DNA of 64,000 nucleotides from a virus (taxonomy: Duplodnaviria; Caudoviricetes), in IMG/VR virus record IMGVR_UViG_3300033070_001288, positions 4,841 to 68,840 of that record. One strand, 5' to 3'. Positions within the stretch are counted from its first letter, which is position 1, and each line of letters opens with the position of its first letter. The notes beneath the pieces are model-generated. The model made no database searches. It saw only the letters and a list, made by a program, of their open reading frames with translations, and was not told where the DNA came from. This document shows, piece after piece, positions 6,392-43,392 of this stretch. A program made the position numbers and the translations under genes.

Positions 6392-7518
6392 GCACGCAGC
6401 TCGGCGCCGGCTTCATTCTTGCGAAGGGCGCGGCGACAGTCTCTGCACGAAGCGTCGTCAGGCAGCTTCGTCTTGAGAACTACGTTGCCGCTCCCGTCTA
6501 GCACTAGCAGCAAAAACTCGAATCCGGCGGTGCGCGTTCCTCTAGCTTTTGCCTTGAGCTGTAGAAAGCGCTTCGAGCGCCGATGCTTGATTCCCGCGGT
6601 GTACGAAGACTTGACTTCGACCACCAACGATCCGTTCACGAAGAAGTCGGGATAGTACTTGTGATTCTTGCCTCCGAAGCGGTAGTCGATGACAGGTGCC
6701 TTCTGAGAAACGCTATCTACTCCGAAGCGCCTGCAGAGGTACTTGGCCGCTCGGTCCTCGTAGCCGAGGCACGAGAACTTCTTGCCTTCGACCACGACGC
6801 TTCGCTTTCGAAAAGCGTTGCTGAGAGCGCGGTAGGCCACATCTGCATTCTGCATCGGGTGGTCCGCACCGTACCTCTCCTTACACGTCTTCTTGTATCG
6901 CTTGAGCTGTCGTCGGTCAGACGCTGCGTACTTTCCCTGACTCCTTCGTTTGGCTCGCGTAGTAAGTACACGTTCGACGATTTCTGGTACGCGCAACGCA
7001 TTGTCAGCTCCATAGCGCTCTATCATCGTTTCGCGCATCTTACGCTTGACTTCTTCCGACTGCGTAGCATACTCTGTTCCGTACCTAGCCCGGTTAGTCT
7101 TGCGCGCCTTGCGCTTTGCCGCTTCGCACTGGAAGGGCGTCTCGACCCCATAGCGCTTGAGATTAGTCTTCTGGCGCTGCGCTATCACCTTGGGGTCTTT
7201 GCCCGAGTGCTCTACGCCGCGCTTGCGAAGAGACGTGGCCCTCTTCTTGGCTTCGGTTCCTACACCGAGGCACGACAGGCCGCAGTAAGTCCGGAATCCC
7301 TGCGAGAACTTGATCAGCGTCGTGATGGGCTTGCTGCACACAGGACAGGGCGGTGGAGCTCCGAAGGCGGCAACGTACATGGCCCCGTGCCAAGTCATGC
7401 CTCGATCTCGCGCGTCGCGCGCTATCGCTTCGGTCCACTTCTCCGACAGCTTGCGCGCCGACCTCTCCGTCTTCTTGCCCAGTAGCAAGAACTTCGCTAC
7501 GAAATCGCTCTTGTTCAT
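6388..7518 (-). CDS. free-standing homing endonuclease: Zn-ribbon, (K/R)YG repeats, C-terminal PD-(D/E)XK (TnsA-like) nuclease
   Basis: CPVC..YCGLSC; repeats RYGVETPFQ/RYGTEYATQ/RYGADNALR/RYGADHPMQ; KYYPDFFVNGSLVVEVKS. Antisense to neighbours, AT-richer, and shares a CTAG stop overlap with the protease gene. Confidence 0.8.
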   Translation of the reverse strand: MNKSDFVAKFLLLGKKTERSARKLSEKWTEAIARDARDRGMTWHGAMYVAAFGAPPPCPVCSKPITTLIKFSQGFRTYCGLSCLGVGTEAKKRATSLRKRGVEHSGKDPKVIAQRQKTNLKRYGVETPFQCEAAKRKARKTNRARYGTEYATQSEEVKRKMRETMIERYGADNALRVPEIVERVLTTRAKRRSQGKYAASDRRQLKRYKKTCKERYGADHPMQNADVAYRALSNAFRKRSVVVEGKKFSCLGYEDRAAKYLCRRFGVDSVSQKAPVIDYRFGGKNHKYYPDFFVNGSLVVEVKSSYTAGIKHRRSKRFLQLKAKARGTRTAGFEFLLLVLDGSGNVVLKTKLPDDASCRDCRRALRKNEAGAELRA

Positions 7519-11067: not shown

Positions 11068-11214
11068 CGGATCACCACTAGAGTAAATCACTATCGACGC
11101 GGGGTCTTGTACCCCGCTCTGCCGTCTCTACAACCTCGGAGCACACCCTGATGCGCGGACCACCCAACTCGCTACGCCGCCCGTACGCCAACACCAGCGA
11201 GGAGAACTAAGAAC

Positions 11215-14200
11215 ATGCGCATCGACCGAGTATACACCACCTCCGTATCCGACCCCTACGACCTCATCGAGTGGACGCGAACCGACAGCGAGATTCGCAA
11301 CCCCGACGGCGGCGTCGTCTTCTCGCTCAGAGACATCGAAGTTCCCAAGGGCTGGAGCAAGGTCGCGGCCGACGTGCTCGCGCAGAAGTACTTCCGCAAG
11401 GCCGGTGTCCCTGCGATTACGCGCCGCGTTCCCGAAGACGGCGTCCCCAACTGGCTGCAGAGGTCGGTTGGAGTTGAGGTCGCGGCGGTAGGCTCCGAGA
11501 CGAGCGCCAAGCAAGTCTTCGACCGCCTCGCTGGCGCCTGGACCTACTGGGGCTGGAAGATGGGCGTGTTCGACCCGTCTGCAGACCAGCTGGCGGGGGT
11601 AGTCGTCGACCCCCGGGCCATCGCGTTCTCCAATGCGCGCGCCTACTTCGACGAGATGCGCTACATGCTCGCCGCTCAGATCGCGGCCCCCAACTCTCCG
11701 CAGTGGTTCAACACCGGCCTGCACTGGGCCTACGGCATCGACGGCCCGTCGCAGGGTCACTACTACTACGACACCGTCGTCGGCGAAGTCGTCGAGTCTA
11801 AGTCGTCCTACGAGCGCCCGCAGCCCCACGCCTGCTTCATCCAGTCGGTGGCCGACGACCTCGTCAACGACGGCGGCATCATGGACCTGTGGACCCGCGA
11901 GGCGCGGCTGTTCAAGTACGGCTCGGGCTGCCTGTCGGGTGACGCAGACGTCGTTACCGCTACGGGTATCGTAAATCTGCGTTCTCTGTGGCGTCGGGCG
12001 AGGAAAGAGGGCCTGACACCGCAAGAATTTGACGGTGCCGGCAGGTATATTGATGTCGCCCACTGGGGCGTTAAGGTTGCTTCGTTGTGCACTCGTACGG
12101 GTTCGTACAGGTTCGCTCCCTTGGATAAGGTATGGTCGTATCGAGTACCGAAGGAAGACAAGGTCTGCGTGACCTTCGATACGGGTGCAAAAGTAACCAC
12201 CAGTGCTTGGCATCCGTTTATGAAGTGGAACGGTGAAGCCATCGTAGAGTGTCGCGCAGACACTCTAGTTCGTGGTGATGCCGTAGCCGGACCGAATACG
12301 TCTTTGCTAGATACGCTACCGAAGAAAAACCACTCCATAGATGTAACGTCTAGATACTTTGGTAGTCGGGAGACGCAGACGATTGCCGTAGATGCAGACG
12401 TTGCCTGGCTTATAGGGTACTTCTTCGGTAACGGCAATCTGGGTAAGACGGGAAAATCTCTTCGGTACGGTACCACCAGATACCGCGTACGTTTTTCCGA
12501 TCACCATCGAGAGCCACTAGACAAGATCGTCGGAATTATCGACTCGCTATTCGGCGAGAAAGGCACCGTCAAAAAATCCAAGCGCGCCGACATGTACGGC
12601 GTAAGTTTTACCGGACGATGGACGACACGCCTGTTTCGAACTCTGTCTCGGGCAGGAAGCAAGACGTATACGATGAAGGTTCCAAACTTCGTCTACTTTC
12701 TGCACGATGACGTATACGCCGCGTTCATCGCGGGCCTAGCCGACTCTGACGGTTCAGTATCAGGGGGTCGAATCCACTACCATACAGCGTCACCGAAGTT
12801 CCTTTCCGCGCTGGCCGGTATCTGCAGTGTTCGCGGACACGGCGGCAGTTCTACTCGGCGCAGCGTATGCCTAGTCAGACGTTCCTATAACGGTCCCCTG
12901 CGGGAAGCTATTGTTGCAAACATGGCAACTCCCCGCCACGTAGAAGCGATGAGAACCCCTAGTCGCAGGCAGTGGACTCTCCCACTAACAGGTGCGATGA
13001 GAGAAGCCATTATAGACCAACAAGAAGACTATCTGCATAACAGTGTAGACGGAGAACTAATTCATACGGGACGCCTCCGCTATGATAGCGTCGTAAACTC
13101 TTGCAAAGTTTCTGCACTCGCTACGCTGCTGCGTCCGAAAGACTCTGCTCTACTTCAGAACGTGGCGTCGGGTGCTGCATTCGTCACCGACGTAGCTTCT
13201 CTAGATTCTGACGTAGACTTCTACGATCTTACCGTAGGGGGAGATAACAATTATCTCGCCGGAGAAAACGGGTTCGTCACTGTCCATAATACCGGCACCA
13301 ACTTCTCGGCCGTTCGCGGCGAGAACGAGAAGCTGTCTGGCGGCGGCAAGTCGTCGGGCCTAATGTCGTTCCTGAAGATCGGCGACGCGTCGGCGGGCGC
13401 CATCAAGTCGGGCGGCACGACTCGCCGCGCTGCCAAGATGGTCGTCCTCGACGTAGACCACCCCGACGTGGTCGAGTTCGTTCAGTGGAAGTCGCGCGAA
13501 GAAGACAAGGTCGCGGCGCTCGTGACGGGTTCGAAGGTCGTCAAGAAGCACGTTCGGTCGATCATGCGCGCCTGCATCAACTGCGAGGGCGAAGGCGACT
13601 CGTGCTTCGACCCGAAGAAGAACCCGGCTCTGCACAAAGAGATTCGCCTGGCGCGACGCGCTTCGGTGCCCGACTCTTATATCCACCGAACCGTCCAGCT
13701 GGCTCGTCAGGGCATCAGCGAAATCGACTTCGACGAGTTCTCCCTCGACTGGGGCTCCGAGGCCTACACGACCGTCTCGGGCCAGAACTCGAACAACTCG
13801 GTCCGCGTGAGCGACGCCTTCATGGAGGCCGTGAACCTCGACACCGAGTGGAAGCTCAAGGCGCGTCTCACCGGCGAGACGATGCGCGTCGTGTCGTCTC
13901 GCGACCTGTGGGACAAGATCGGCTACGCGGCGTGGTCATCCGCAGACCCCGGCGTCCAGTACGACACGACGATCAACGACTGGCACACGTGCTCCGTCGA
14001 CGGTCGCATCAACGCGTCGAATCCGTGCTGCTTCGTAGCAGGCACTTTCGTAGACACGAGCGAAGGCCTCATCGACATCGCAGAGCTTACGCGAATGAAG
14101 CGTAGGGGAGAGACTTTGCCCCTTGCTTTTAGCTACGATTTCGACAAAGGCGGTCCCGTTCTTCGCCAGATAAATAACGCTTGGAAAGCCGGCGTCACAC

Positions 14201-15882
14201 GTAACCTCGTGGAAGTAAGAACAGAAAAAGGTCAACGTATTCGCTGCACCCCCGAGCACGTATGGTACCTGCGAGACGGAACAGAGGTACAAGCCAAAGA
14301 TTTGCAACCAGGTATGAGCCTAAGAAAGATCAAGAGGGGTGCCAATCCTCACCGTTCTGGAAGAATCTCTATCCTGTCGTTTCCCGATTCCCGAAGCGAG
14401 CGCGGTCGTTGCAGCCAAGCTCGATGGATGTGGAAACAAGTATTCGGCGATATACCGGAAGGCTTCGAGGTTCACCATAGAAACGAAGACCCTACCGACG
14501 ACAGAATCAGCAACTTCAAGCTAGTCGAGGGCCGGCGCCATCGCAGGTTCCATGCTCGAGGTCTACGCAATCCTCGAGCAATAGACGTATCCAGCGAGGT
14601 ACTAGTCGAAGTTTTCGACACGATAGCTTCGCAGGATCGCAAAACACACAAGCGGCGCGATGGAGTTTCCCCTGCGATGTGGAACTCTTACATTCGTCGA
14701 AACAACCTTCGCGGAAAGGTGCCTATGGCAGCGTCGCCGACGCTGGGTGGACGTATTCGAGGAATGAAATGGGATGCGTTCGTGTCTCAGATGGAAGAAG
14801 CGCGCTACGACGTAAATGATCGCGTCAAGCGTGTTAAGAATATAGTGCTCGACTCTGCTGTTCCTGTATACGACATAGAAGTCGAAGGAACACATAACTT
14901 CGGCATTCGAGACGATCAGGACGGCAGCAAATCTTCTCTGATCGTATCGAACAGCGAGTACATGTTCCTCGACGACACGGCCTGCAACCTGGCGTCGCTG
15001 AACCTCAAGAAATTCGGCGGCGTCGCCGACTTCGACGTGGATCGCTTCAGGCACGCCGTTCGCCTGTGGACCATCACCCTCGAAATCTCGGTGGAGATGG
15101 CTCAGTTCCCGTCGCGCGAGATCGCTCTGCGCTCGTACAAGTACCGCACGCTCGGCCTCGGCTACGCGAACGTCGGCGGCATGCTCATGTCGAGCGGCGT
15201 GGGATACGACTCGCGCACCGGCCGCGCCACCATCGGGGCCATCACCGCGATCATGACGGGTGAGGCATACGCGACCTCGGCGCGCATGGCGGAGCAGCTC
15301 GGGCCGTTCGTTCGCTACGAGGCCAACAAAGACTCGATGGAGCGAGTGATCCGCAACCACCGAGCGGCGGCTCAGGGCACCTTCTACTCGAAGCTGTCTA
15401 TCGAGCCTCCCAAGCTCGACCACTATGCCTGCTCTCCTGTTCTCGCGAAGGCGGCGCGCGACGTGTGGGACGATGCCATCAATCTCGGCACCGCTCACGG
15501 ATACCGCAACGCACAGGTGTCGTGCATCGCCCCTACGGGATGTACGCTTTCTACTACGCGTATTCGTACCGAAGATGGTATCAAGTCTTACCGTGAAATT
15601 TTAGAAGAGAACGATATAGACTGGAAGGAAATCGAAAAAGGTAACGACCAACGTTGGATTCCACTGAAGCCTTTCTGGCTTCCGTCACAAGATGGGCATC
15701 GAGACTATGCCGATAAAATATGGTACAACGGTATCCAAGAAACCTACGTCGTCACTTTTGAAGACGGAACAGAATTTGAGTGTACTGGCAACCACAAATT
15801 GTTGGTACGCTTGAGCAACAGCGAAACTGCCTGGATCGAGGCTCAATACCTCAATGGGGATGAAGAGGTATTATCTTCATAA
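11215..15882 (+). CDS. nrdJ: class II (AdoCbl-dependent) ribonucleotide reductase, N-terminal fragment with two cis inteins and a terminal split-intein N-half
   Basis: VLAQKYFRKAGVP, APNSPQWFNTGL, PQPHACFIQSV, RRAAKMV, INASNPC/SEYMFLDDTACNLAS, RTLGLGYAN, SCIAPTG; AGGAG RBS. Confidence 0.95.
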   Translation: MRIDRVYTTSVSDPYDLIEWTRTDSEIRNPDGGVVFSLRDIEVPKGWSKVAADVLAQKYFRKAGVPAITRRVPEDGVPNWLQRSVGVEVAAVGSETSAKQVFDRLAGAWTYWGWKMGVFDPSADQLAGVVVDPRAIAFSNARAYFDEMRYMLAAQIAAPNSPQWFNTGLHWAYGIDGPSQGHYYYDTVVGEVVESKSSYERPQPHACFIQSVADDLVNDGGIMDLWTREARLFKYGSGCLSGDADVVTATGIVNLRSLWRRARKEGLTPQEFDGAGRYIDVAHWGVKVASLCTRTGSYRFAPLDKVWSYRVPKEDKVCVTFDTGAKVTTSAWHPFMKWNGEAIVECRADTLVRGDAVAGPNTSLLDTLPKKNHSIDVTSRYFGSRETQTIAVDADVAWLIGYFFGNGNLGKTGKSLRYGTTRYRVRFSDHHREPLDKIVGIIDSLFGEKGTVKKSKRADMYGVSFTGRWTTRLFRTLSRAGSKTYTMKVPNFVYFLHDDVYAAFIAGLADSDGSVSGGRIHYHTASPKFLSALAGICSVRGHGGSSTRRSVCLVRRSYNGPLREAIVANMATPRHVEAMRTPSRRQWTLPLTGAMREAIIDQQEDYLHNSVDGELIHTGRLRYDSVVNSCKVSALATLLRPKDSALLQNVASGAAFVTDVASLDSDVDFYDLTVGGDNNYLAGENGFVTVHNTGTNFSAVRGENEKLSGGGKSSGLMSFLKIGDASAGAIKSGGTTRRAAKMVVLDVDHPDVVEFVQWKSREEDKVAALVTGSKVVKKHVRSIMRACINCEGEGDSCFDPKKNPALHKEIRLARRASVPDSYIHRTVQLARQGISEIDFDEFSLDWGSEAYTTVSGQNSNNSVRVSDAFMEAVNLDTEWKLKARLTGETMRVVSSRDLWDKIGYAAWSSADPGVQYDTTINDWHTCSVDGRINASNPCCFVAGTFVDTSEGLIDIAELTRMKRRGETLPLAFSYDFDKGGPVLRQINNAWKAGVTRNLVEVRTEKGQRIRCTPEHVWYLRDGTEVQAKDLQPGMSLRKIKRGANPHRSGRISILSFPDSRSERGRCSQARWMWKQVFGDIPEGFEVHHRNEDPTDDRISNFKLVEGRRHRRFHARGLRNPRAIDVSSEVLVEVFDTIASQDRKTHKRRDGVSPAMWNSYIRRNNLRGKVPMAASPTLGGRIRGMKWDAFVSQMEEARYDVNDRVKRVKNIVLDSAVPVYDIEVEGTHNFGIRDDQDGSKSSLIVSNSEYMFLDDTACNLASLNLKKFGGVADFDVDRFRHAVRLWTITLEISVEMAQFPSREIALRSYKYRTLGLGYANVGGMLMSSGVGYDSRTGRATIGAITAIMTGEAYATSARMAEQLGPFVRYEANKDSMERVIRNHRAAAQGTFYSKLSIEPPKLDHYACSPVLAKAARDVWDDAINLGTAHGYRNAQVSCIAPTGCTLSTTRIRTEDGIKSYREILEENDIDWKEIEKGNDQRWIPLKPFWLPSQDGHRDYADKIWYNGIQETYVVTFEDGTEFECTGNHKLLVRLSNSETAWIEAQYLNGDEEVLSS
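11929..13290 (+). mobile_element. intein 1 (454 aa, LAGLIDADG endonuclease) at KYGSG|TGTNFS
   Basis: Begins CLSGDADV and ends FYDLTV..VTVHN with Thr+1. LAGLIDADG motifs LIGYFFGNG and FIAGLADSDG; AT-richer than exteins. Confidence 0.93.
14029..14952 (+). mobile_element. intein 2 (308 aa, HNH endonuclease) at NPC|SEY
   Basis: Begins CFVAGTFV; block B CTPEH; HNH motif EVHHRNEDPTDDRISNFKLV..HRRFH; ends VYDIEV..LIVSN with Ser+1. Confidence 0.92.
15541..15879 (+). mobile_element. split intein N-half (113 aa) after IAPTG
   Basis: Starts CTLSTTRIRT and has block B FECTGNHKLLV. Ends at stop 15880-82 without blocks F/G. Confidence 0.9.
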
Positions 15883-15888
15883 GTCTTG

Positions 15889-15940
15889 GGAATAGCTCCT
15901 AGCTACTAACCAATTTTATACGTTAGCTAGGAGCTATTCC
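15889..15940 (+). promoter_or_regulatory. RBS-sequestering hairpin with candidate late promoter in its loop
   Basis: Perfect 17-bp arms GGAATAGCTCCTAGCTA (15889-15905) and TAGCTAGGAGCTATTCC (15924-15940). The right arm holds AGGAG and abuts the ATG at 15941; the loop contains CCAATTTT. Confidence 0.8.
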
Positions 15941-17197
15941 ATGTCCATACCTGTGGTAAACTTTGTAAGAGGGAGAACTCACCTACATCGCTATCTAGAG
16001 AAGCAGTCACTTCCTAAGATAGTACGCGATGTTCGCAAATTAAAGAATGAAGACTGGGAAAAGATATTTAGCAGCAGCTATGATCCAGATGTGCCAGTTA
16101 AGGTATACCGGACGGCTATCTACCTTTGGGCAAAGCGACGATTATCTCCAAAGACGATACTTAGATATTACAGAGGACTGATAAGTCGTAGTCATTTTTC
16201 AACTTCTCAAATAGAAATGTGGCTGGATAGTCCTAATGCGAGTCCTAGGGTACCTGATTTTTATAAGAGAAAATATGGTATTCATTGGAAAGCATACTAT
16301 GATATTGCTAGGAAAAAGAGCAATCCCTACAATTTAGAATCGGTAATGAAACGCTACGGACTCAGCAGACGCGAAGCTGAAATCGAAGTAGGACGCAGAA
16401 AGAAAAATACTTCTGGATCGTTTGCATCATTTCTTCGTCGTGCCGGGGGTGACGTTTCGGAGGCTCGAAGAAGGTTTCGCTCCTTCTGCGAGAAGTCTTC
16501 TCATACTGAAGAAAAATTCCGAAAGAGATACGGTAAAAACTATAAGGCAAAGTGGGAAGAGTACAAGAAGAGCAAGAACAGCTATGACTTGGACAAGTAC
16601 GTAGCTAAGTACGGAGAATCTCTGGGCCGCGAAAAATTGCTCGATAGAATAGATCGTAGCGTCGTGGACTATGCCAAGTTCGTGGAAATGTACGGTGAGC
16701 ATAACGCTGAGCGTGAGTATATTAAGTACTGCTATAGAAAAACCAAAAGCTGGAAACGTAAGTCGGGTAGGTGGGGTGCAACCAAAGAGTCGTTGGAGTT
16801 CTTTAAGCCGCTGCTACTCAAACTCGATAGAAGAAACGTTGAATACCGAATAGGAGTTGAGGGTAACCGAGAGTTTATGCTACTAGATAAAGAATCGGGT
16901 AAGGTTAGGTACTACGATTTTTGTATACCCTCTATCAGAGTAGTAGTCGAGTTCGACGGTTTTACGCATCCTAGTCCTTCGTTGTCTGCAAAAAAACTGG
17001 CTAAATGGCGCTGCCACTTTACTGGAGTTTCTGCAGAAACTCGTCTTGCAGATGACGAGGCTAAGAGGCGCGTAGCGGTTTCTAGAGGTTACCTGTTCTT
17101 CCGTTTTCACGCAGATGAGATCAAAAAAGATAGGCGTCGGTATCAGGCTATGCTGTGGAGTGTAATCAATCCCCTGCTTAAGGAGAAGAGAAAATGA
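15941..17197 (+). CDS. free-standing Vsr-like (PD-(D/E)XK-related) homing endonuclease between the split-intein halves
   Basis: Repeated (K/R)YG units, then [44 protein letters not shown]-rich; ATGA overlap with the intein C-half start. Confidence 0.8.
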
Positions 17198-17301
17198 AAA
17201 TAACGTCCGTACGCAAGTCGGGAAGAAGTATGCCCACTTGGGACATTGAAGTTCGGGACAAGCATTGTTATTGGTTGGAGAACGGCGTATTATCGCATAA
17301 T
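17194..17301 (+). mobile_element. split intein C-half (36 aa)
   Basis: [36 protein letters not shown] is basic, with block F Asp, terminal His-Asn and Thr+1. Confidence 0.92.
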
Positions 17302-18771
17302 ACGATCGGCCTCGTCATGGACTGCGACACGACGGGCATCGAGCCCGACTTCGCTCTCGTCAAGCACAAGAGCCTCGTCGGCGGCGGCTTCTTCAAGATC
17401 ATCAACCAGTCGGTGCCCGACGCCCTTCGCGCTCTGGGCTACGGCCAAGACACGATCGACGGGATCACGCGCTACGTGGTCGGGTCGGGCGAGCTTCCCG
17501 CCGATTTCTGGGCCAAGCTCACGTTCGAGGAGAGGCACGCGCTCGAGGCTTCGATCCCGACGGCGTTCTCGATACGCAGCCTGGGCATCAACTGGGAAGA
17601 GCGCGGGTTCACCCCCAAGCAGATCGACGACGCCGACTCGTACTGCTGCGGCCGCATGACCATCGAGGGCGCACCCGGCCTGCGCGAGGAGCACTACTCC
17701 GTGTTCGACTGCGCCAGCCAGTGCGGCAAGTGGGGCACGCGCGTGCTTTCGGTTAACGCTCACCTCATGATGATGTCGGCGGCTCAGCCGTTCGTCTCGG
17801 GAGCTATCTCGAAGACGATCAACATGTCGAACGACTGCACGGTCGCCGACTGCCTCGACGCCTACCGCCTCGCGTGGGGCCTCGGCCTCAAGTCGGTGGC
17901 GCTCTACCGCGACGGGTCGAAGCTGTCCCAGCCGCTCATGTCGCGCCTCGCTGTCGACGCCGACGAGGCCGAAGACATCGTCGAGCTGAACCCCGCCGCG
18001 CGCACCGAGCGCGTGGTGGAGCGCATCGTCGAGCGCATCGTGGCGCGCGACCGCGAGAAGCTGCCCTCCCGCCGCAAGGGCTACACGCAGAAGGCCGTCG
18101 TCGGCGGCCACAAGGTGTACCTGCGCACGGGCGAGTACGAGGACGGGCGCCTCGGCGAGATATTCGTCGACATGCACAAAGAGGGCGCGACGTTCCGCAG
18201 TCTGATGAACTCGTTCGCAATCGCAGTGTCCATCGGCCTGCAGTTCGGCGTGCCGCTAGAAGAGTTCGTAGACGCGTTCACGTTCACGCGCTTCGAACCC
18301 TCGGGGCTGGTTCAGGACAACGACGCTATCAAGAACGCTACGTCGATCCTCGACTACGTGTTCCGCGAACTGGCGATCTCGTACCTCGACCGCACCGACC
18401 TCGCTCACGTGACTCCCTCGGGCAACGGGACCGAGATGGGCGGCGGAGAGTCGGAGGGTCGCCAGCAGGCTCTCGTCTCTCGCGGCCTCCTCCGATCCGC
18501 CGGACCGCTAGCTCTGGCTGCGGAGCTGGCCAAGTCTCTAGAAGGAGCCAGTGTTCCCGTGCGCATGACTGCTGCAGCGACGGGGCTCGGTTCCGTCGGC
18601 GTAATAGCGACGGTCGGAGCCGTCGACGTCGCAGCTCCCAGCCGCGCCGAGGTGGCTCTCATGAAGGGCTACGTCGGAGAGTCGTGCGAGACGTGCGGCA
18701 ACTTCACCCTCGTCCGCAACGGCACGTGTCTCAAGTGCGACTCGTGCGGAAGCACCACCGGCTGCAGCTGA
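17194..18771 (+). CDS. nrdJ: class II RNR C-terminal fragment preceded by split-intein C-half; includes TSCPD-like domain and terminal Zn ribbon
   Basis: HN|[91 protein letters not shown]. Confidence 0.95.
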
Positions 18772-25875: not shown

Positions 25876-25887
25876 CGCCAATTTAGA
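25876..25887 (+). promoter_or_regulatory. candidate late-promoter motif CGCCAATTTAGA
   Basis: Intergenic, between the capsid stop and its terminator. Confidence 0.5.
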
Positions 25888-25891
25888 GACG

Positions 25892-25925
25892 AAGGGGAGG
25901 AGATTTTCTCCTCCCCTTTTCTTCT
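25892..25925 (+). terminator. intrinsic terminator after major capsid gene
   Basis: 12-bp stem AAGGGGAGGAGA / TTT / TCTCCTCCCCTT followed by TTCTTCT. Confidence 0.8.
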
Positions 25926-25936
25926 AGGTTGGTTCC

Positions 25937-27187: not shown

Positions 27188-27594
27188 GCAACCAAGTAGC
27201 AGACCTGCTCGTCGTCGCCCACCTCGCCTTCGTCAAGGCCGAGGCTAGCAGAGACGCCGACGGCGTAGAGAAGGCGGTAGAGCTTGCCGTGCGCGCCCTC
27301 TCTCACCCCGCAGCCCCCGGATTCTTCGCCGCCCTAGACGCGGCGCACGCCGAGCTAAACGACGTATCGGGCAACGACCCCGACACGCTCGGCAACGACG
27401 ACTCTCCCCTCAACCCGCTGGCTCCCGATCCGACGTTCGACGGCGACGAGGACGGCGACGGCGTACCCGACGAAGACTCGGACGCGGCGGGCCCCGCCGA
27501 CGAGGGCCTGGTGAAGCACGAGGCGTTTGCCGTCACGCGGCGCCCGCTCGTTAGCAGCGCGGTAGCCGCCGTAGCCGCTCGGATGAAGAAGTGA
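27184..27594 (+). CDS. hypothetical acidic protein
   Basis: ATGA overlap with the HEG stop. Confidence 0.65.
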   Translation: MSNQVADLLVVAHLAFVKAEASRDADGVEKAVELAVRALSHPAAPGFFAALDAAHAELNDVSGNDPDTLGNDDSPLNPLAPDPTFDGDEDGDGVPDEDSDAAGPADEGLVKHEAFAVTRRPLVSSAVAAVAARMKK

Positions 27595-28318
27595 CGACTA
27601 CCCAGGCGACCACCGAGGTACCGCGCGTAGTTCGTGCGCCCCTGTTCATCGAGTCGTGGAACGGCGTAATCCAGCGCCTGCAGTCGCTGTACTCGAAGCA
27701 GTCGCAGATAACCGCAGACGACATCGCCATCGTTCCCGTGGCCAACCCGTCGGCTCTGCGCCAGATGCTCCAGAGCCAGGCCAAGCCCCTGCAGCTCCCA
27801 GTGATCGGTGTTACGCCCACCAGCGTAGACCCCAACGAGAACAACCTCAACGCCGCCGTCGCTCGCAAGCACGGCGTGTCTTTCTCGATGGACGAAGACG
27901 AGTCGTTCTGGTACGTGCTCAAGGCGCGCCCCGTCGTACTGACCTTCCAGGTCACGATGGTCACCGACGACGTCGTGACGCTGCTGCGCATGGTCGACCG
28001 CTGGGAGAGCAACGAGACGTGGGGGTTCACCCTCGTCGTCCCCGACACGTCGGTGAAGGCCGTGATCAAAGTCGTACCCGACAAGAGCCTCGCGATACCG
28101 CAGAGCGCCCAGTCGCCCGACGGCTCGAACCAGTCGAACTCACGACCAATTTGAAGGTAGAAACGCTGGCGGGCTTCATCTGGCGCGTGCCTACCATCAG
28201 AGCCATCGAACTCACCGCCAACGTCCCGAAGAGCAGCATCCTCGAGGCAATCGAGGACCCGAGCCGCGGGATAGAGGTGATGACGAAAACGCTCACGCAG
28301 TTCGTGCCCAGCACCTAA
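27591..28318 (+). CDS. putative neck/tail-completion protein, apparently frameshifted near 28133
   Basis: Frame of 27591 is protein-like to ..QSPDGSNQ and stops at 28154. The -1 frame continues VELTTNLKVETLAGFIWRVP to 28318. Lies upstream of the sheath. Confidence 0.5.
28143..28155 (+). promoter_or_regulatory. candidate late-promoter motif CGACCAATTTGAA
   Basis: About 175 nt upstream of the 28331-sheath gene run, same orientation. Confidence 0.4.
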
Positions 28319-31247: not shown

Positions 31248-31290
31248 CGACCAATTTGTCTCCGTAGAAATCTTTTCTACGGAGACAAGC
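31248..31290 (+). promoter_or_regulatory. candidate late promoter overlapping a 15-bp RBS-sequestering hairpin
   Basis: CGACCAATTTGT. Arms TTGTCTCCGTAGAAA (31256-70) and TTTCTACGGAGACAA (31274-88); GGAG lies in the right arm, ATG at 31291. Confidence 0.7.
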
Positions 31291-32199
31291 ATGAGCAAGA
31301 TAGAAATGCGCTGGGGCGTCGAAGGAATAAAATACGGATTCGTTTACAAGTGGCGAGATTCTGGTAAAAAACGCTACTACATCGGGTCTCACTGGGGAAA
31401 GTTTAACGACGGATACGTATGCAGCTCACCTAGCATGCGCGATGCACGCAGACGTCGTCCTCAAGATTTCACCCGCCGCATCCTGGCCGTAGTTACGACT
31501 AACCGACTAGACTTACTCGCCAGAGAGCAGGCGGCGCTCGACAAGATACCTCGTAGCCATTTTGGTACTAGAGCCTACAACGTAAGTACGAAGGTGCATA
31601 AGCCTTGGTGGGCTAAGGGCTCTAGGCTCAAGAGCAAGACGGTCGTCAAGCTAAAGGCTTCTTGGCAGAATGCAGACCGCAGAGAAGAAGCGTCGCGCGC
31701 AGCCAAGCAGCGCAAATACTCTGCAGAGACTCGGGACAAGATGTCGCGATCTGCAAAGAAGAAGTGGCGAGACGAAGAAGTCCGCGCTACCTACGAGGCT
31801 TCTATGAAGGGGCGGAAGCCCTGGAACGCGGGAACTAGCGGCGTAGTCGTAGCGTGGAACAAGGGCACTGATCAACCAGCCCTGACAAAGAAGCATCGCG
31901 CAAAGATTTCTGCCTCACTAGCAGGTAGGCCGCGGTCTGACGAAGCTCGACGTGCTGTAAGCGCCGGTGCCGTAGAGCGGTGGAAGTCTGCAGAGTACCG
32001 CGCCAAGATTTCTGCTTCGCGTGCGGTCGCACGAGCGCGCGGTGAGTGCAAGGTAACACCGAAGCAAGCCGTTCGCATCCGCAGGATGTACGCTTCGGGG
32101 AGATACACGCTAGGCGACCTGTCTGGCAAGTTCGATGTAAGCCGATCTTACGTGCACGGGGTGATACACGATCCTCGGTGGGACGCGGCAATAGGGTAG
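31291..32199 (+). CDS. GIY-YIG homing endonuclease (Seg-like) with NUMOD3-like repeats and C-terminal HTH
   Basis: GFVYKW..YYIGSH..YVCSS..REQ..YN; KGRKPWNAG/AWNKG; KISASLAGRPRS. Confidence 0.88.
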   Translation: MSKIEMRWGVEGIKYGFVYKWRDSGKKRYYIGSHWGKFNDGYVCSSPSMRDARRRRPQDFTRRILAVVTTNRLDLLAREQAALDKIPRSHFGTRAYNVSTKVHKPWWAKGSRLKSKTVVKLKASWQNADRREEASRAAKQRKYSAETRDKMSRSAKKKWRDEEVRATYEASMKGRKPWNAGTSGVVVAWNKGTDQPALTKKHRAKISASLAGRPRSDEARRAVSAGAVERWKSAEYRAKISASRAVARARGECKVTPKQAVRIRRMYASGRYTLGDLSGKFDVSRSYVHGVIHDPRWDAAIG

Positions 32200-32225: not shown

Positions 32226-32747
32226 ATGCCCGCAGCCAGCTTTTCGCAGATAGACGCGTTGGCCGACGCGCTCGCCACCGACCGCTTCGAGATTCTGCTC
32301 GACCCCCAGGCCATTCAGGGTGCGAACTCGGTCTTGGCCCTGCGCTGTCAGCAGATCGTCGTTCCCGAAGAAATGATCGAGCCGATGCTCCTTCAGATTC
32401 ACGGGATGGAGTTCTCGTACCGCGGTCGCCGCACGTACGACAAGGCAATCGGCGCCTCGTTCGTCGAGTTCACAGACGCGGCGGCGGGCCAGAGCCTGCG
32501 CACGTGGATGCAGAATATCGTCGGCGGCGAGAGCCACAATGGTCAGTCGAAGCGTCAGTACGCCGTACAGGGGACGCTGAACATCTTCGACCAGTCGGGC
32601 GACGTTGCTCTTGCATACCGCCTCGATAACTGCTGGCCCCAGCAGATACCGCAGATTCAGCTCGACGGCACGAACGCCGCGCAGTTCGTCATGCAGACGA
32701 CCTTCACGTTCGACCGCCTGAGCCAGAACGGGGTTACAATAATGTAG
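32226..32747 (+). CDS. tail tube protein (T4 gp19-like)
   Basis: DRFEILL, YRGRRTY..FVEF, LNIFDQSG..YRLDNCWPQQI..LDG..TFTFD; GGAG RBS. Confidence 0.8.
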   Translation: MPAASFSQIDALADALATDRFEILLDPQAIQGANSVLALRCQQIVVPEEMIEPMLLQIHGMEFSYRGRRTYDKAIGASFVEFTDAAAGQSLRTWMQNIVGGESHNGQSKRQYAVQGTLNIFDQSGDVALAYRLDNCWPQQIPQIQLDGTNAAQFVMQTTFTFDRLSQNGVTIM

Positions 32748-40879: not shown

Positions 40880-41281
40880 TTGAGCATCAGTCCCTCTCCA
40901 GTCGGGTTCTCCCCGCGATACGACATGCAGTCGCTGATGCCCGCGATAGACGTGACGTCGGGTACCGACCAGCTCGTGCGTCCCGGAAAGCGCACCCTCA
41001 TGATCGACGCGCTCGACCAGAAGCTGGTAGACGCGCTGGAGAGCATCAGCTCCTTCAACGAAGTCGTGTGGGCAGGCGTCAAGCTCACCACGCTCTGCTT
41101 TCAGGCGCACGGCACGCCCAACACGAAGTTCTTGGTACTGGCCTTCAACGGCCTGGGGTCCGAGACTGAGCTGCGTCCGGGCATGGTGCTTCGCATACCT
41201 ACGAAGCCTGGCCTCGACGAGGTAATGAAGCGGGCCTACGCCGTCAAGACTAACGGCATCGGCTCCACGGTAATGATCTGA
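40880..41281 (+). CDS. baseplate wedge protein (gp53/LysM-like)
   Basis: LCFQAHGTP..VLAFNGL..ELRPGMVLRIP. Confidence 0.6.
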   Translation: MSISPSPVGFSPRYDMQSLMPAIDVTSGTDQLVRPGKRTLMIDALDQKLVDALESISSFNEVVWAGVKLTTLCFQAHGTPNTKFLVLAFNGLGSETELRPGMVLRIPTKPGLDEVMKRAYAVKTNGIGSTVMI

Positions 41282-41291
41282 GGAGCACTCG

Positions 41292-41426
41292 ATGCTAGAA
41301 ACTGCAGTACACGCCCTCTTCATAATCCTCGCCACCCTAGGTGTCGTCGCGGGCATCGTGGTGGTCGCTGCGGCGGCGGTGTTAATCTATATCGCTATGT
41401 CGTGGATGGACTCGGGTTCTCACTGA
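41292..41426 (+). CDS. small single-TM peptide (44 aa), not in ORF track
   Basis: AGGAG RBS; MLETAVHALFIILATLGVVAGIVVVAAAAVLIYIAMSWMDSGSH; TGATG-coupled to the next HEG. Confidence 0.6.
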   Translation: MLETAVHALFIILATLGVVAGIVVVAAAAVLIYIAMSWMDSGSH

Positions 41427-42250
41427 TGGCGTTCAAGACTAAAGACCTAGCAGAATTTAGCACGATAGGCGTGTATGTAATAAAGTCGCCTGCTTCTTGG
41501 AACTGTTACGTGGGATCTTCTAAATCTTGTCAGTCCCGGATAGCTAGGCACTTCTATATGCTCAGAAGCGGTACCCACCCTAACCACATACTTACTAGGG
41601 CGTATCGTAAATACGGTGAATCACTAGAAGCATACGTGGTGGAAGAGCTGAGCTTACGCAAGTGGCGTAGAGATCCTTCGATGCTGACAGATATAGAAGA
41701 CGAATGGATAGAACTTTTACCCAGTGTCTACAATATTTCTAAGTCGGCCCATTCGCCGTCTGCGGACCATCGTATTCGCGCAAAGATAAGCAGAGCACTC
41801 GCTGGAAGAAAGATGTCAAAGGCTAGGCTCAAGGTCCATATCGAGGCAATGAGAAGGCCCGACGTTAACGATAAGCGCCGCAAGAAGATGAAGAATCGGC
41901 CGCTATCGGACCGTGCGAAGAAGCAGCATAGGGCTATGGTTGACAGTGATTGGTGGAGGAAAAGAGTTAGCGCGGGACGTAGAAAGAATATGAAAGAAGT
42001 ATCTAGCGAAACGTGTGCTAAGATATCGGCATCTCTGACGGGTCGCCGCCTGTCAGACTCTCACCGGGAAAACATCAGTGTGGGACATACAGGGCTGGTC
42101 AAGTTGACCAACGCGCAAGTTCGCCTAATAAGGCGACAGCACGACCCTCGTTGCGCTACGCAGAGCTACCGCAATCTAGGCGACAAATTCGGAGTGTCGT
42201 GGTTGACAGTTTTTAAGGTCGTTAAGAATGTTGGAGCTTACGCATCATGA
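41426..42250 (+). CDS. GIY-YIG homing endonuclease with NUMOD3-like repeats and C-terminal HTH
   Basis: GVYVI..CYVGSS..RIARH..EDEWIE..YN; KISASLTGRRLSDSHR; terminal LTNAQVRLIR..LGDKFGVS. Confidence 0.88.
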   Translation: MAFKTKDLAEFSTIGVYVIKSPASWNCYVGSSKSCQSRIARHFYMLRSGTHPNHILTRAYRKYGESLEAYVVEELSLRKWRRDPSMLTDIEDEWIELLPSVYNISKSAHSPSADHRIRAKISRALAGRKMSKARLKVHIEAMRRPDVNDKRRKKMKNRPLSDRAKKQHRAMVDSDWWRKRVSAGRRKNMKEVSSETCAKISASLTGRRLSDSHRENISVGHTGLVKLTNAQVRLIRRQHDPRCATQSYRNLGDKFGVSWLTVFKVVKNVGAYAS

Positions 42251-43392
42251 GCTTCCGAACCAAAGACCTTGCAGAGTTCGGCCTCAAGGTAAACGGCGTC
42301 GACATGATGATCGGTGCCGACATGCTCAAGGACGTGTCGGTGATACAGAACGTGCACTCGCCCGTTCCGACCGTTACCATGACCTTCCTAGACAACAAGC
42401 GCGCGGCTCAGAGCGCGGGAGTGTTCGTAGACGGCGCCAAGCTGGAGGTCACGATAGGCGACGGTAAGAAAGACCCGTCCGTCTACAAGATGCGCCAGTG
42501 GTCGCTCGAAGACGCTGCGGCCAACACGGCAGGCGACGTCTGCACCATATCGGGCACCGCCGATCTGATACCCTGGTTCCGCAAGGTGGTCGACAAGGCG
42601 TACAAGGGAACGTCTACCGAAGTCGCTCAGAAGCTGGCGAAGGACAACGGCGTCGAGAAGGTAGACGCCGAGTCGTCGAACGACAAGATGGTGCACCTGC
42701 CCGACGGGTCTACGGTGAGCCAGTTCCTGCGGCGCATCATAGACCACTCCTGGGTGGCCGAGGGAGCTTCTCTGTTCGCCGCCATGACGTACAGCGGCAA
42801 CGACGTCATGCTCCGCATAAAGGACATCATGAAGCAGAGCGACGGCGCGAGCAAGAGGCTGGTGTCGGCGGGGCTGGCGAAGCCCGACGATCTCACGGTC
42901 TGGGACTACCGCATCAGCTCGCACACGGGTTTCCTCAACGCGCTCACCAACTACGGACACAAGGCAGTTCAAGAGAAGCTGGGGTCGAGCGCCCCCGACA
43001 TCTTCACGTCGATGGCGATCAACAAGCTGGCGTCGTCGCTGGGTATCAACGCCGACGTAGCGAAGGCCGTCAACCTGGTTCGCACGCTGTACCACCCGCC
43101 AGACGTCGGCAACACCCACAAGGACTGGGTTAAGGCGGCGCACCACAACGTCAAGAGCCGCGCGGCATTCTCCGCGGTAGTGTCGGTCATGACCGACGTA
43201 CTCACCGAGTACAAGCTGCTCGACACGGCCGAAGCTGAGCTGGCACGATCCAACGGCGAACCCGACGCCGCCTTCTCGGGAAAGTACAAGGTCACCGCGA
43301 TAGCTCGGCACATATCTAAGGGGTCGTACCGCGAGAAGCTGATCCTGACGGGTCAGGGAACCAACGCCGACCTCTTTAAGCAGGGGACGTAG
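42247..43392 (+). CDS. baseplate hub protein (gp27/gpD-like)
   Basis: 381 aa, immediately before a gp5-like gene; SEVA.KLA..NG..VDA..SND..HLP, QFLRRI pattern. Confidence 0.6.
   Translation: MSFRTKDLAEFGLKVNGVDMMIGADMLKDVSVIQNVHSPVPTVTMTFLDNKRAAQSAGVFVDGAKLEVTIGDGKKDPSVYKMRQWSLEDAAANTAGDVCTISGTADLIPWFRKVVDKAYKGTSTEVAQKLAKDNGVEKVDAESSNDKMVHLPDGSTVSQFLRRIIDHSWVAEGASLFAAMTYSGNDVMLRIKDIMKQSDGASKRLVSAGLAKPDDLTVWDYRISSHTGFLNALTNYGHKAVQEKLGSSAPDIFTSMAINKLASSLGINADVAKAVNLVRTLYHPPDVGNTHKDWVKAAHHNVKSRAAFSAVVSVMTDVLTEYKLLDTAEAELARSNGEPDAAFSGKYKVTAIARHISKGSYREKLILTGQGTNADLFKQGT

Follow-up and report, generated by a model that had tools for sequence, protein, structure and literature searches.

Hairpins precede the start codon in 15 of the 16 endonuclease 5′ UTRs of the fractured genes described by Dassa et al. 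(2009), NrdJ loci included, and ten of these hairpin 5′ UTRs include the late-promoter box TATAAATA; the 3′ end of the endonuclease gene overlaps the downstream part of the fractured gene by 6-69 bp (PMC2677866). The free-standing endonuclease encoded between the split-intein halves of such genes is of the Vsr-like or GIY-YIG type (PMC2677866). The review by Edgell, Gibb and Belfort sets out the logic of a hairpin over the ribosome-binding site (RBS) combined with a late promoter for I-TevI, with similar arrangements for I-TevII, I-TevIII, segB and mobE (PMC2988022). An earlier note on the DNA analysed here invoked this T4 precedent, in which the hairpin silences I-TevI-type endonucleases on early and middle read-through RNA and a late promoter within the hairpin releases them, and its account agrees with the review (PMC2988022).

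The nrdJ locus described here follows this already known design, found at I-TevI, at Aeh1 mobE and in the fractured genes including NrdJ; what is different is the lineage and the candidate promoter word. Its order of an N-intein half, a stop codon, a hairpin before the ATG, a Vsr/DUF559-like endonuclease and an overlap with the part bearing the C-intein is that of the fractured genes (PMC2677866). Those genes come from marine and freshwater DNA, mostly of cyanophages and T4-like phages, and use TATAAATA, whereas the present locus belongs to a high-GC jumbo myovirus and carries aCCAATTT; its overlap, ATGA, is also shorter than their 6-69 bp (PMC2677866). Aeh1 mobE (Gibb and Edgell 2007 and 2009, as cited in the two sources) is likewise a free-standing endonuclease gene that splits an RNR gene, with an RBS hairpin, late promoters and a 3′ overlap (PMC2988022, PMC2677866). 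Unlike the gene here, mobE encodes an HNH enzyme and has TATAAATA promoters; its phage is T4-like, and the nrdA that it splits is of class I and intein-free. T4 I-TevI, I-TevII, I-TevIII and segB share with the arrangement proposed below the nesting of a late gene within an early or middle transcription unit, structure over the Shine–Dalgarno sequence (SD), and a late (or middle) promoter that bypasses it (PMC2988022). The T4 genes are, however, intron-encoded or intergenic, of the GIY-YIG or HNH type, with starts that were mapped experimentally, whereas the present case is read from sequence. I-TevI has an added operator resembling its homing site (PMC2988022), and no such resemblance is seen at the hairpin here.

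Source of the DNA and its relative

The window, the whole 64,000-nt stretch of DNA that was analysed, corresponds to positions 4841-68840 of IMG/VR record IMGVR_UViG_3300033070_001288, a 68.8-kb contig of an uncultured phage with a completeness of 28% (CheckV). Its GC content is ~61% overall and ~62-69% in the native genes adjoining the endonuclease gene. A myovirus-type structural module in the window includes a prohead protease, a capsid protein and a tail sheath. Identity of this capsid protein to its counterparts in the jumbo phages Lu11, PaBG and phiRSL1 (RSL1) is only ~35%, and the phage is therefore not a T4-like phage.

IMG/VR scans with the capsid protein, alone and as an alignment, returned a single relative contig, G001 (168.7 kb, 53% GC), whose major capsid protein (MCP) is 73% identical, while the scan with the protease returned no relatives. 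Public phage records contain no DNA match to the structural region, and the NrdJ-C part gives short matches only. The motif statistics of the lineage are drawn from two genomes, the window phage and G001. Genes were called crudely, from ORF length and GC by codon position, and the 272 gene starts used for comparison are pooled from the phage and G001.

Layout of the fractured nrdJ locus

The class II RNR gene of the window is divided into two parts around an endonuclease ORF, and as judged by its encoded domains this layout is that of a 'fractured gene' as in Dassa et al. 2009 (PMC2677866). The main coding features are the following.

11215..15882, plus strand: NrdJ N-terminal part, 1555 aa, class II RNR, with Pfam domains Ribonuc_red_lgC, Ribonuc_red_2_N, Intein_splicing, HNH_3 and LAGLIDADG_3
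15941..17197, plus strand: free-standing homing-endonuclease ORF, 418 aa, in a 42% GC island, with a DUF559/Vsr-like C-terminal domain
17194..18771, plus strand: NrdJ C-terminal part, beginning with a 36-aa C-intein (17194-17301) that ends in HN and is followed by the extein TIGL

Within the NrdJ N-part, a LAGLIDADG intein and an HNH intein are contiguous, and the part terminates in the N-half of a split intein (15541-15879). Specifically, the N-part extein ends in APTG at 15540 and is followed by Cys; the putative N-intein half comprises the 113 aa after APTG, starts with this Cys and contains TGNH. The insertion point of the split intein thereby falls between APTG and TIG. At the other end of the endonuclease gene, the NrdJ-C start overlaps the endonuclease stop in the ATGA at 17194-17197.

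The DUF559 assignment comes from a match of 21.9 bits, against a cut-off of 20.6, obtained when the C-terminal 139 aa (residues 280-418) were scanned alone; the full-length endonuclease has no Pfam match and no PDB sequence match, and its PHROG matches are weak. One homologue is known, P0002 from a Logan assembly, which is also 418 aa long, is 68% identical and aligns from residue 1. Scans of IMG/VR and JGI metagenomes with the protein and with the alignment returned no homologues.

A perfect hairpin over the endonuclease Shine–Dalgarno sequence

The spacer between the NrdJ N-part and the endonuclease gene contains a hairpin composed of three elements.

15889..15905, plus strand: left arm of the hairpin, GGAATAGCTCCTAGCTA, in which CTCCT (15896-15900) pairs with the SD
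15906..15923, plus strand: 18-nt loop of the hairpin, CTAACCAATTTTATACGT
15924..15940, plus strand: right arm of the hairpin, TAGCTAGGAGCTATTCC, which holds the SD AGGAG (15929-15933)

The earlier note had described the arms as exact reverse complements and the right arm as carrying AGGAG and abutting the ATG. Both descriptions hold for the sequence itself, and a repeat search returned the same arms, each 17 nt long, 100% complementary and 18 nt apart. The left arm begins 6 nt downstream of the stop codon of the nrdJ N-half, and the right arm stops one base before the endonuclease ATG (15941-15943), placing AGGAG 7 nt upstream of it. Among inverted repeats with arms within 60 nt of each other, this is the longest perfect one of the 64-kb window, against a chance expectation for such repeats of ~5e-4 by our estimate from base composition.

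Folded as RNA, the segment 15883-15960 (78 nt) reaches -31.3 kcal/mol, compared with -14.75 +/- 2.6 kcal/mol for dinucleotide shuffles (z -6.3), and none of the 200 shuffles is as good. Opening positions -14 to +3 around the endonuclease start costs 21.9 kcal/mol, which ranks first among the 272 gene starts (median 5.7). All pairs of the stem are Watson–Crick, and the free energy is -31.3 kcal/mol on both strands; because the stem folds equally well on either strand, the sequence does not indicate that the sense-strand RNA is the selected form. A reading of the locus as an antisense-RNA cassette is not supported, as the opposite strand lacks CCAATTT in the vicinity of the hairpin and a perfect stem cannot discriminate between strands. 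No Rfam family matches the hairpin, the only signal being sub-threshold miRNA-like noise on the opposite strand.

A stable stem located 6 nt past a stop codon might be taken for an intrinsic terminator of the nrdJ N-half. However, the stem is followed by ATGTCC, neither strand has a T-run, a loop of 18 nt is unusual for a terminator, and scanning gave no terminator signature between 15882 and 15941; termination at this point would also cut off NrdJ-C, which the enzyme needs. The probability of a terminator is negligible, and this reading was rejected for its missing T-run, its loop and the absence of a call by the scan.

Located between cistrons of a long polycistronic RNA, a perfect 17-bp duplex could also act in RNA processing or stability, for example as an RNase III-type site that splits messages or protects an RNA end. 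Phage T7 has RNase III sites between genes, which counts for such a role, but 17 bp is short for RNase III. Moreover, no processing role requires a stem that holds the SD and ends exactly at the start codon, the same SD placement is found in a second stem of the window at 31256-31288, and the lack of an Rfam match speaks against this role as well. We consider a processing element improbable.

The loop motif aCCAATTT as a candidate late promoter element

The loop contains CCAATTTT at 15910-15917, which the earlier note had put forward as a candidate late promoter word. The word is present, and the motif class to which it would belong is supported by enrichment and by orthology, as detailed below.

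15909..15916, plus strand: aCCAATTT, candidate late-class promoter element, ending 24 nt upstream of the ATG and 7 nt short of the right arm

The 8-mer CCAATTTT occurs a single time in the window, and the recurring word is the 7-mer CCAATTT, of which the window has nine copies against 1.55 expected, eight of them on the plus (gene) strand; over the whole contig, nine copies compare with none for the reversed control. On an approximate ORF map, six of the nine are located in short spacers or at a stop codon, oriented toward the gene that follows. For example, the motif ends 24 nt upstream of the ATG of the prohead protease gene. Copies also precede three other endonuclease genes, at 7518 (minus strand), 25937 and 31291, so that all four free-standing endonuclease genes of the window that have their own spacer carry CCAATTT, 24-52 nt before the ATG and in gene orientation. 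Another copy lies at the end of gene 27591-28154. No exact copy stands directly before the major capsid, sheath or scaffold genes.

In G001, nine of the 14 CCAATTT copies fall in windows upstream of genes (p 1.3e-7), which places the word among the five most upstream-enriched 7-mers. The minus strand, to which the mapped structural genes of G001 belong, carries ten of the 14. Genes preceded by the motif in G001 include those for the tail tube, a tail-fibre-like protein and an HNH endonuclease, among others. Synteny between the window and G001 places the motif at four orthologous positions, namely just after the capsid (MCP) gene, before a g28319-like gene upstream of the sheath gene, before the tail tube gene, and before a g48652-like tail gene.

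A logo of 16 sites consists of A-CCAATTT alone, with no -35 element; GCTAC words occur upstream of some copies at inconsistent spacing. At the most closely spaced sites, 24-25 nt separate the motif end from the ATG and include a normal SD, and any start site therefore lies within ~12 nt after the motif. From this geometry we infer a -10-type single-element promoter like the T4 late box. The loop has aCCAATTT in place of the T4-type late box TATAAATA, which is absent from it. Among cultured phages, the nearest are PaBG, Lu11 and RSL1, and in these aCCAATTT is absent or not enriched; it is therefore specific to a narrower lineage. A literature search on the motif word returned nothing relevant. 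By sequence criteria, namely its over-representation, its orientation toward the downstream gene and its conservation, aCCAATTT is a real intergenic motif of this lineage.

Whether the copy in the loop belongs to this class bears on a simpler reading, in which the hairpin is a constitutive translational damper only and the loop CCAATTT is a chance AT-rich match or a decayed copy. The stem and the sequestered SD are the solid part of the locus and promoter activity the inferred part, the 8-mer is unique in the window, AT-rich words are commoner in a 42% GC island, and seven T4 free-standing endonuclease genes lack a promoter of their own (PMC2988022). Against this, the chance of finding CCAATTT on the sense strand of the 58-nt spacer is ~0.005 by our estimate from local composition, and the motif precedes four of four free-standing endonuclease genes with their own spacer. 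Its flanking A and its 24-nt distance to the ATG also agree with the bona fide sites before the protease gene and genes of G001. A damper acting alone is thus a plausible but unlikely account. Sigma-70-like matches within the endonuclease ORF are at chance level (4 versus 2.7 expected).

The repeat could, alternatively, act at the DNA level, either as a protein-binding operator through which the endonuclease represses its own gene or as a border or recombination scar of a mobile cassette. Its perfect arms without G-U pairs, the equal folding of both strands and the bracketing of a promoter-like motif would fit such a role, and I-TevI represses its own late promoter through an operator resembling its homing site (PMC2988022). 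However, the hairpin aligns to the reconstructed intein-less nrdJ junction with a score of 14, which is not significant given that shuffles average 12.6 and 145 of 500 do as well, the other motif copies are not bracketed by repeats, and the exact register of the right arm with the SD and the ATG is left unexplained. A DNA-level role is scarcely probable, and I-TevI-style operator mimicry in particular was rejected, since the hairpin is not similar to the reconstructed junction.

Two ORFs of the window, 27591-28154 and 27656-28318, overlap in different frames, with 164 nt after 28154 that hold no ORF in the first frame; a frameshift, a wrongly called start or an error in the sequence may lie behind this.

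A second motif class upstream of nrdJ

The nrdJ gene itself is preceded by a different motif, tGAGTAAAtaa, which is a candidate for an early or middle class.

11081..11087, plus strand: GAGTAAA motif, -10-like, candidate early/middle-class element, 134 nt upstream of the nrdJ start

Of the 30 GAGTAAA copies in G001, 19 are located upstream of genes (p 1.7e-14), and the word is the strongest upstream one there, preceding the genes for RNA ligase, DNA ligase, SbcD, DNA polymerase, a Dda-like helicase, RtcB and dCTP deaminase. In the window, the topoisomerase gene also has GAGTAAA, inside its TTGACA-17-TAAACT promoter. Replication and nucleotide-metabolism genes are thus separated by motif class from structural genes, with nrdJ assigned to the first class and its nested endonuclease gene to the second. 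This provides two candidate promoter classes for an uncultured lineage, usable for annotating timing classes.

GAGTAAA sites are located at 11081 and 9037 in the window and, in G001, within 1-74 kb on the plus strand, sometimes with TTGACA 17 nt upstream. The replication module of G001 includes a homing-endonuclease-like ORF (41239-42266, plus strand) whose upstream motif is GAGTAAAtaag instead of CCAATTT; the endonuclease genes seem to take on the promoter class of the genes around them.

Proposed release of the endonuclease by late transcription

Together, the hairpin and the two motif classes suggest a switch in which an RNA-level translational lock is released by late transcription from the loop motif, a model that we regard as fairly probable. 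The nrdJ gene would be transcribed as a replication and nucleotide-metabolism gene, early or in the middle of infection, and its transcript would pass the stop codon of the N-half into the endonuclease cassette. On this read-through RNA the 17-bp stem would form and hide AGGAG, so that the nuclease would not be made, while NrdJ-C would still be translated from its own downstream AGGAG. The loop aCCAATTT, a putative single-element promoter of the kind used before structural (late) genes and probably positioned near -10, would direct transcripts that start a few bases past the motif, in the loop or at the right arm, and lack the left arm. On such shortened late RNAs the SD would be open, permitting synthesis of the nuclease late in infection.

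The geometry of the locus accommodates this scheme. The motif ends at 15916 and the right arm begins at 15924; therefore, a transcript started after the motif is without the whole left arm, as the earlier note had predicted for loop-initiated transcripts. RNAs starting at 15918 and 15924 fold weakly, at -10.1 and -9.8 kcal/mol respectively, weaker than their shuffles (z +1.25 and +1.1). The broader proposal of that note, an I-TevI-type logic operating with a different promoter, gains support from the sequestered SD, the absence of a terminator and the presence of two motif classes.

If true, the model carries a textbook form of phage control, in which a selfish nuclease is silenced early and released late from inside a hairpin, beyond T4-like phages to a high-GC jumbo phage with a different promoter word. 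It opens no new question, because the architecture was reported for fractured genes in 2009.

NrdJ-C supply

The last codons of the endonuclease gene contain a separate ribosome-binding site for the downstream part of nrdJ.

17181..17185, plus strand: AGGAG, the SD of NrdJ-C within the last endonuclease codons, 8 nt before the ATG at 17194

The earlier note had argued from the ATGA overlap that the switch may also affect NrdJ-C supply. The overlap is present, but gating of NrdJ-C by the switch is doubtful. Specifically, the NrdJ-C start region is no more structured than shuffles (z +0.46 and +0.56), and the C-terminal LLKEKRK of the endonuclease, which encodes the NrdJ-C SD, is invariant in the 68% homologue. 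With an AGGAG of its own and an unstructured start, independent initiation of NrdJ-C on read-through RNA is therefore the simpler expectation. Polarity over 1.25 kb of untranslated RNA may still affect NrdJ-C.

Other hairpins at endonuclease genes of the lineage

A comparable structure precedes the endonuclease gene at 31291, where a 15-bp perfect stem (31256-31288) has GGAGA in its 3′ arm and a 5′ arm that begins inside the motif. In an RNA starting at 31264, a 7-bp stem remains and GGAGA is free. G001 lacks the insertion (120133-121299), the motif and the tube gene coming straight after the sheath gene, and the endonuclease gene of the window therefore sits between the putative tube promoter and the tube gene.

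This Seg-like endonuclease gene (31291-32199) lies within the window segment 31251-32226, between the aCCAATTT box of the tube gene and the tail-tube gene. The true start of the tube ORF in the window is near 32226, not at the GTG at 32046.

Both phages share a further arrangement downstream of the capsid gene, consisting of the motif, a two-tier hairpin and an HNH endonuclease gene (window 25877-25933; relative, L009 7102-7155). The outer stem is conserved, with the aCCAATTT box pairing with CTAGRTTGG beside the start codon, whereas the inner GC stem is entirely different in sequence between the phages and yet is kept as a stem. These post-capsid hairpins fold slightly better on the sense strand, at -37.7 versus -33.9 kcal/mol in one phage and -33.8 versus -31.2 kcal/mol in the other. 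The inner stem of the window is followed by TTTTCTTCT and is terminator-like, while that of the relative is not.

Two of these endonuclease loci count against the model of a lock released by late transcription. In the post-MCP copy of the window, the motif is upstream of the terminator-like inner stem, an odd location for a promoter, and the endonuclease gene at 7518 (minus strand), one of the four with the motif, has no significant hairpin. The shortness of the motif, its basis in two genomes, its lack of enrichment in the cultured relatives, the missing exact copies directly upstream of the major capsid, sheath and scaffold genes, and the equal folding of both strands of the nrdJ stem weigh against the model as well. 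The starts of the protease, capsid and sheath genes are unstructured.

Taken across the lineage, aCCAATTT could be the single-element late promoter of a previously uncharacterised, non-T4 jumbo lineage, served by a phage factor, with unrelated cassettes having rebuilt the same switch independently; the combination of a hairpin with a nested late promoter would then be a general convergent solution and not a T4 peculiarity. The cassettes concerned are Vsr-like, HNH and Seg-like, and in two cases the promoter box would itself be the 5′ strand of the stem. This lineage-wide reading is quite possible, if somewhat short of probable.

A further structured start is found in G001, where a 346-aa ORF (123830-124870, minus strand) with no counterpart in the window is an insertion that separates the g28664 orthologue from the sheath gene. 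Its GGGAG is covered by a hairpin, with an opening cost of 16.8 kcal/mol, the fifth of the 272 starts, and the ORF may be another mobile gene.
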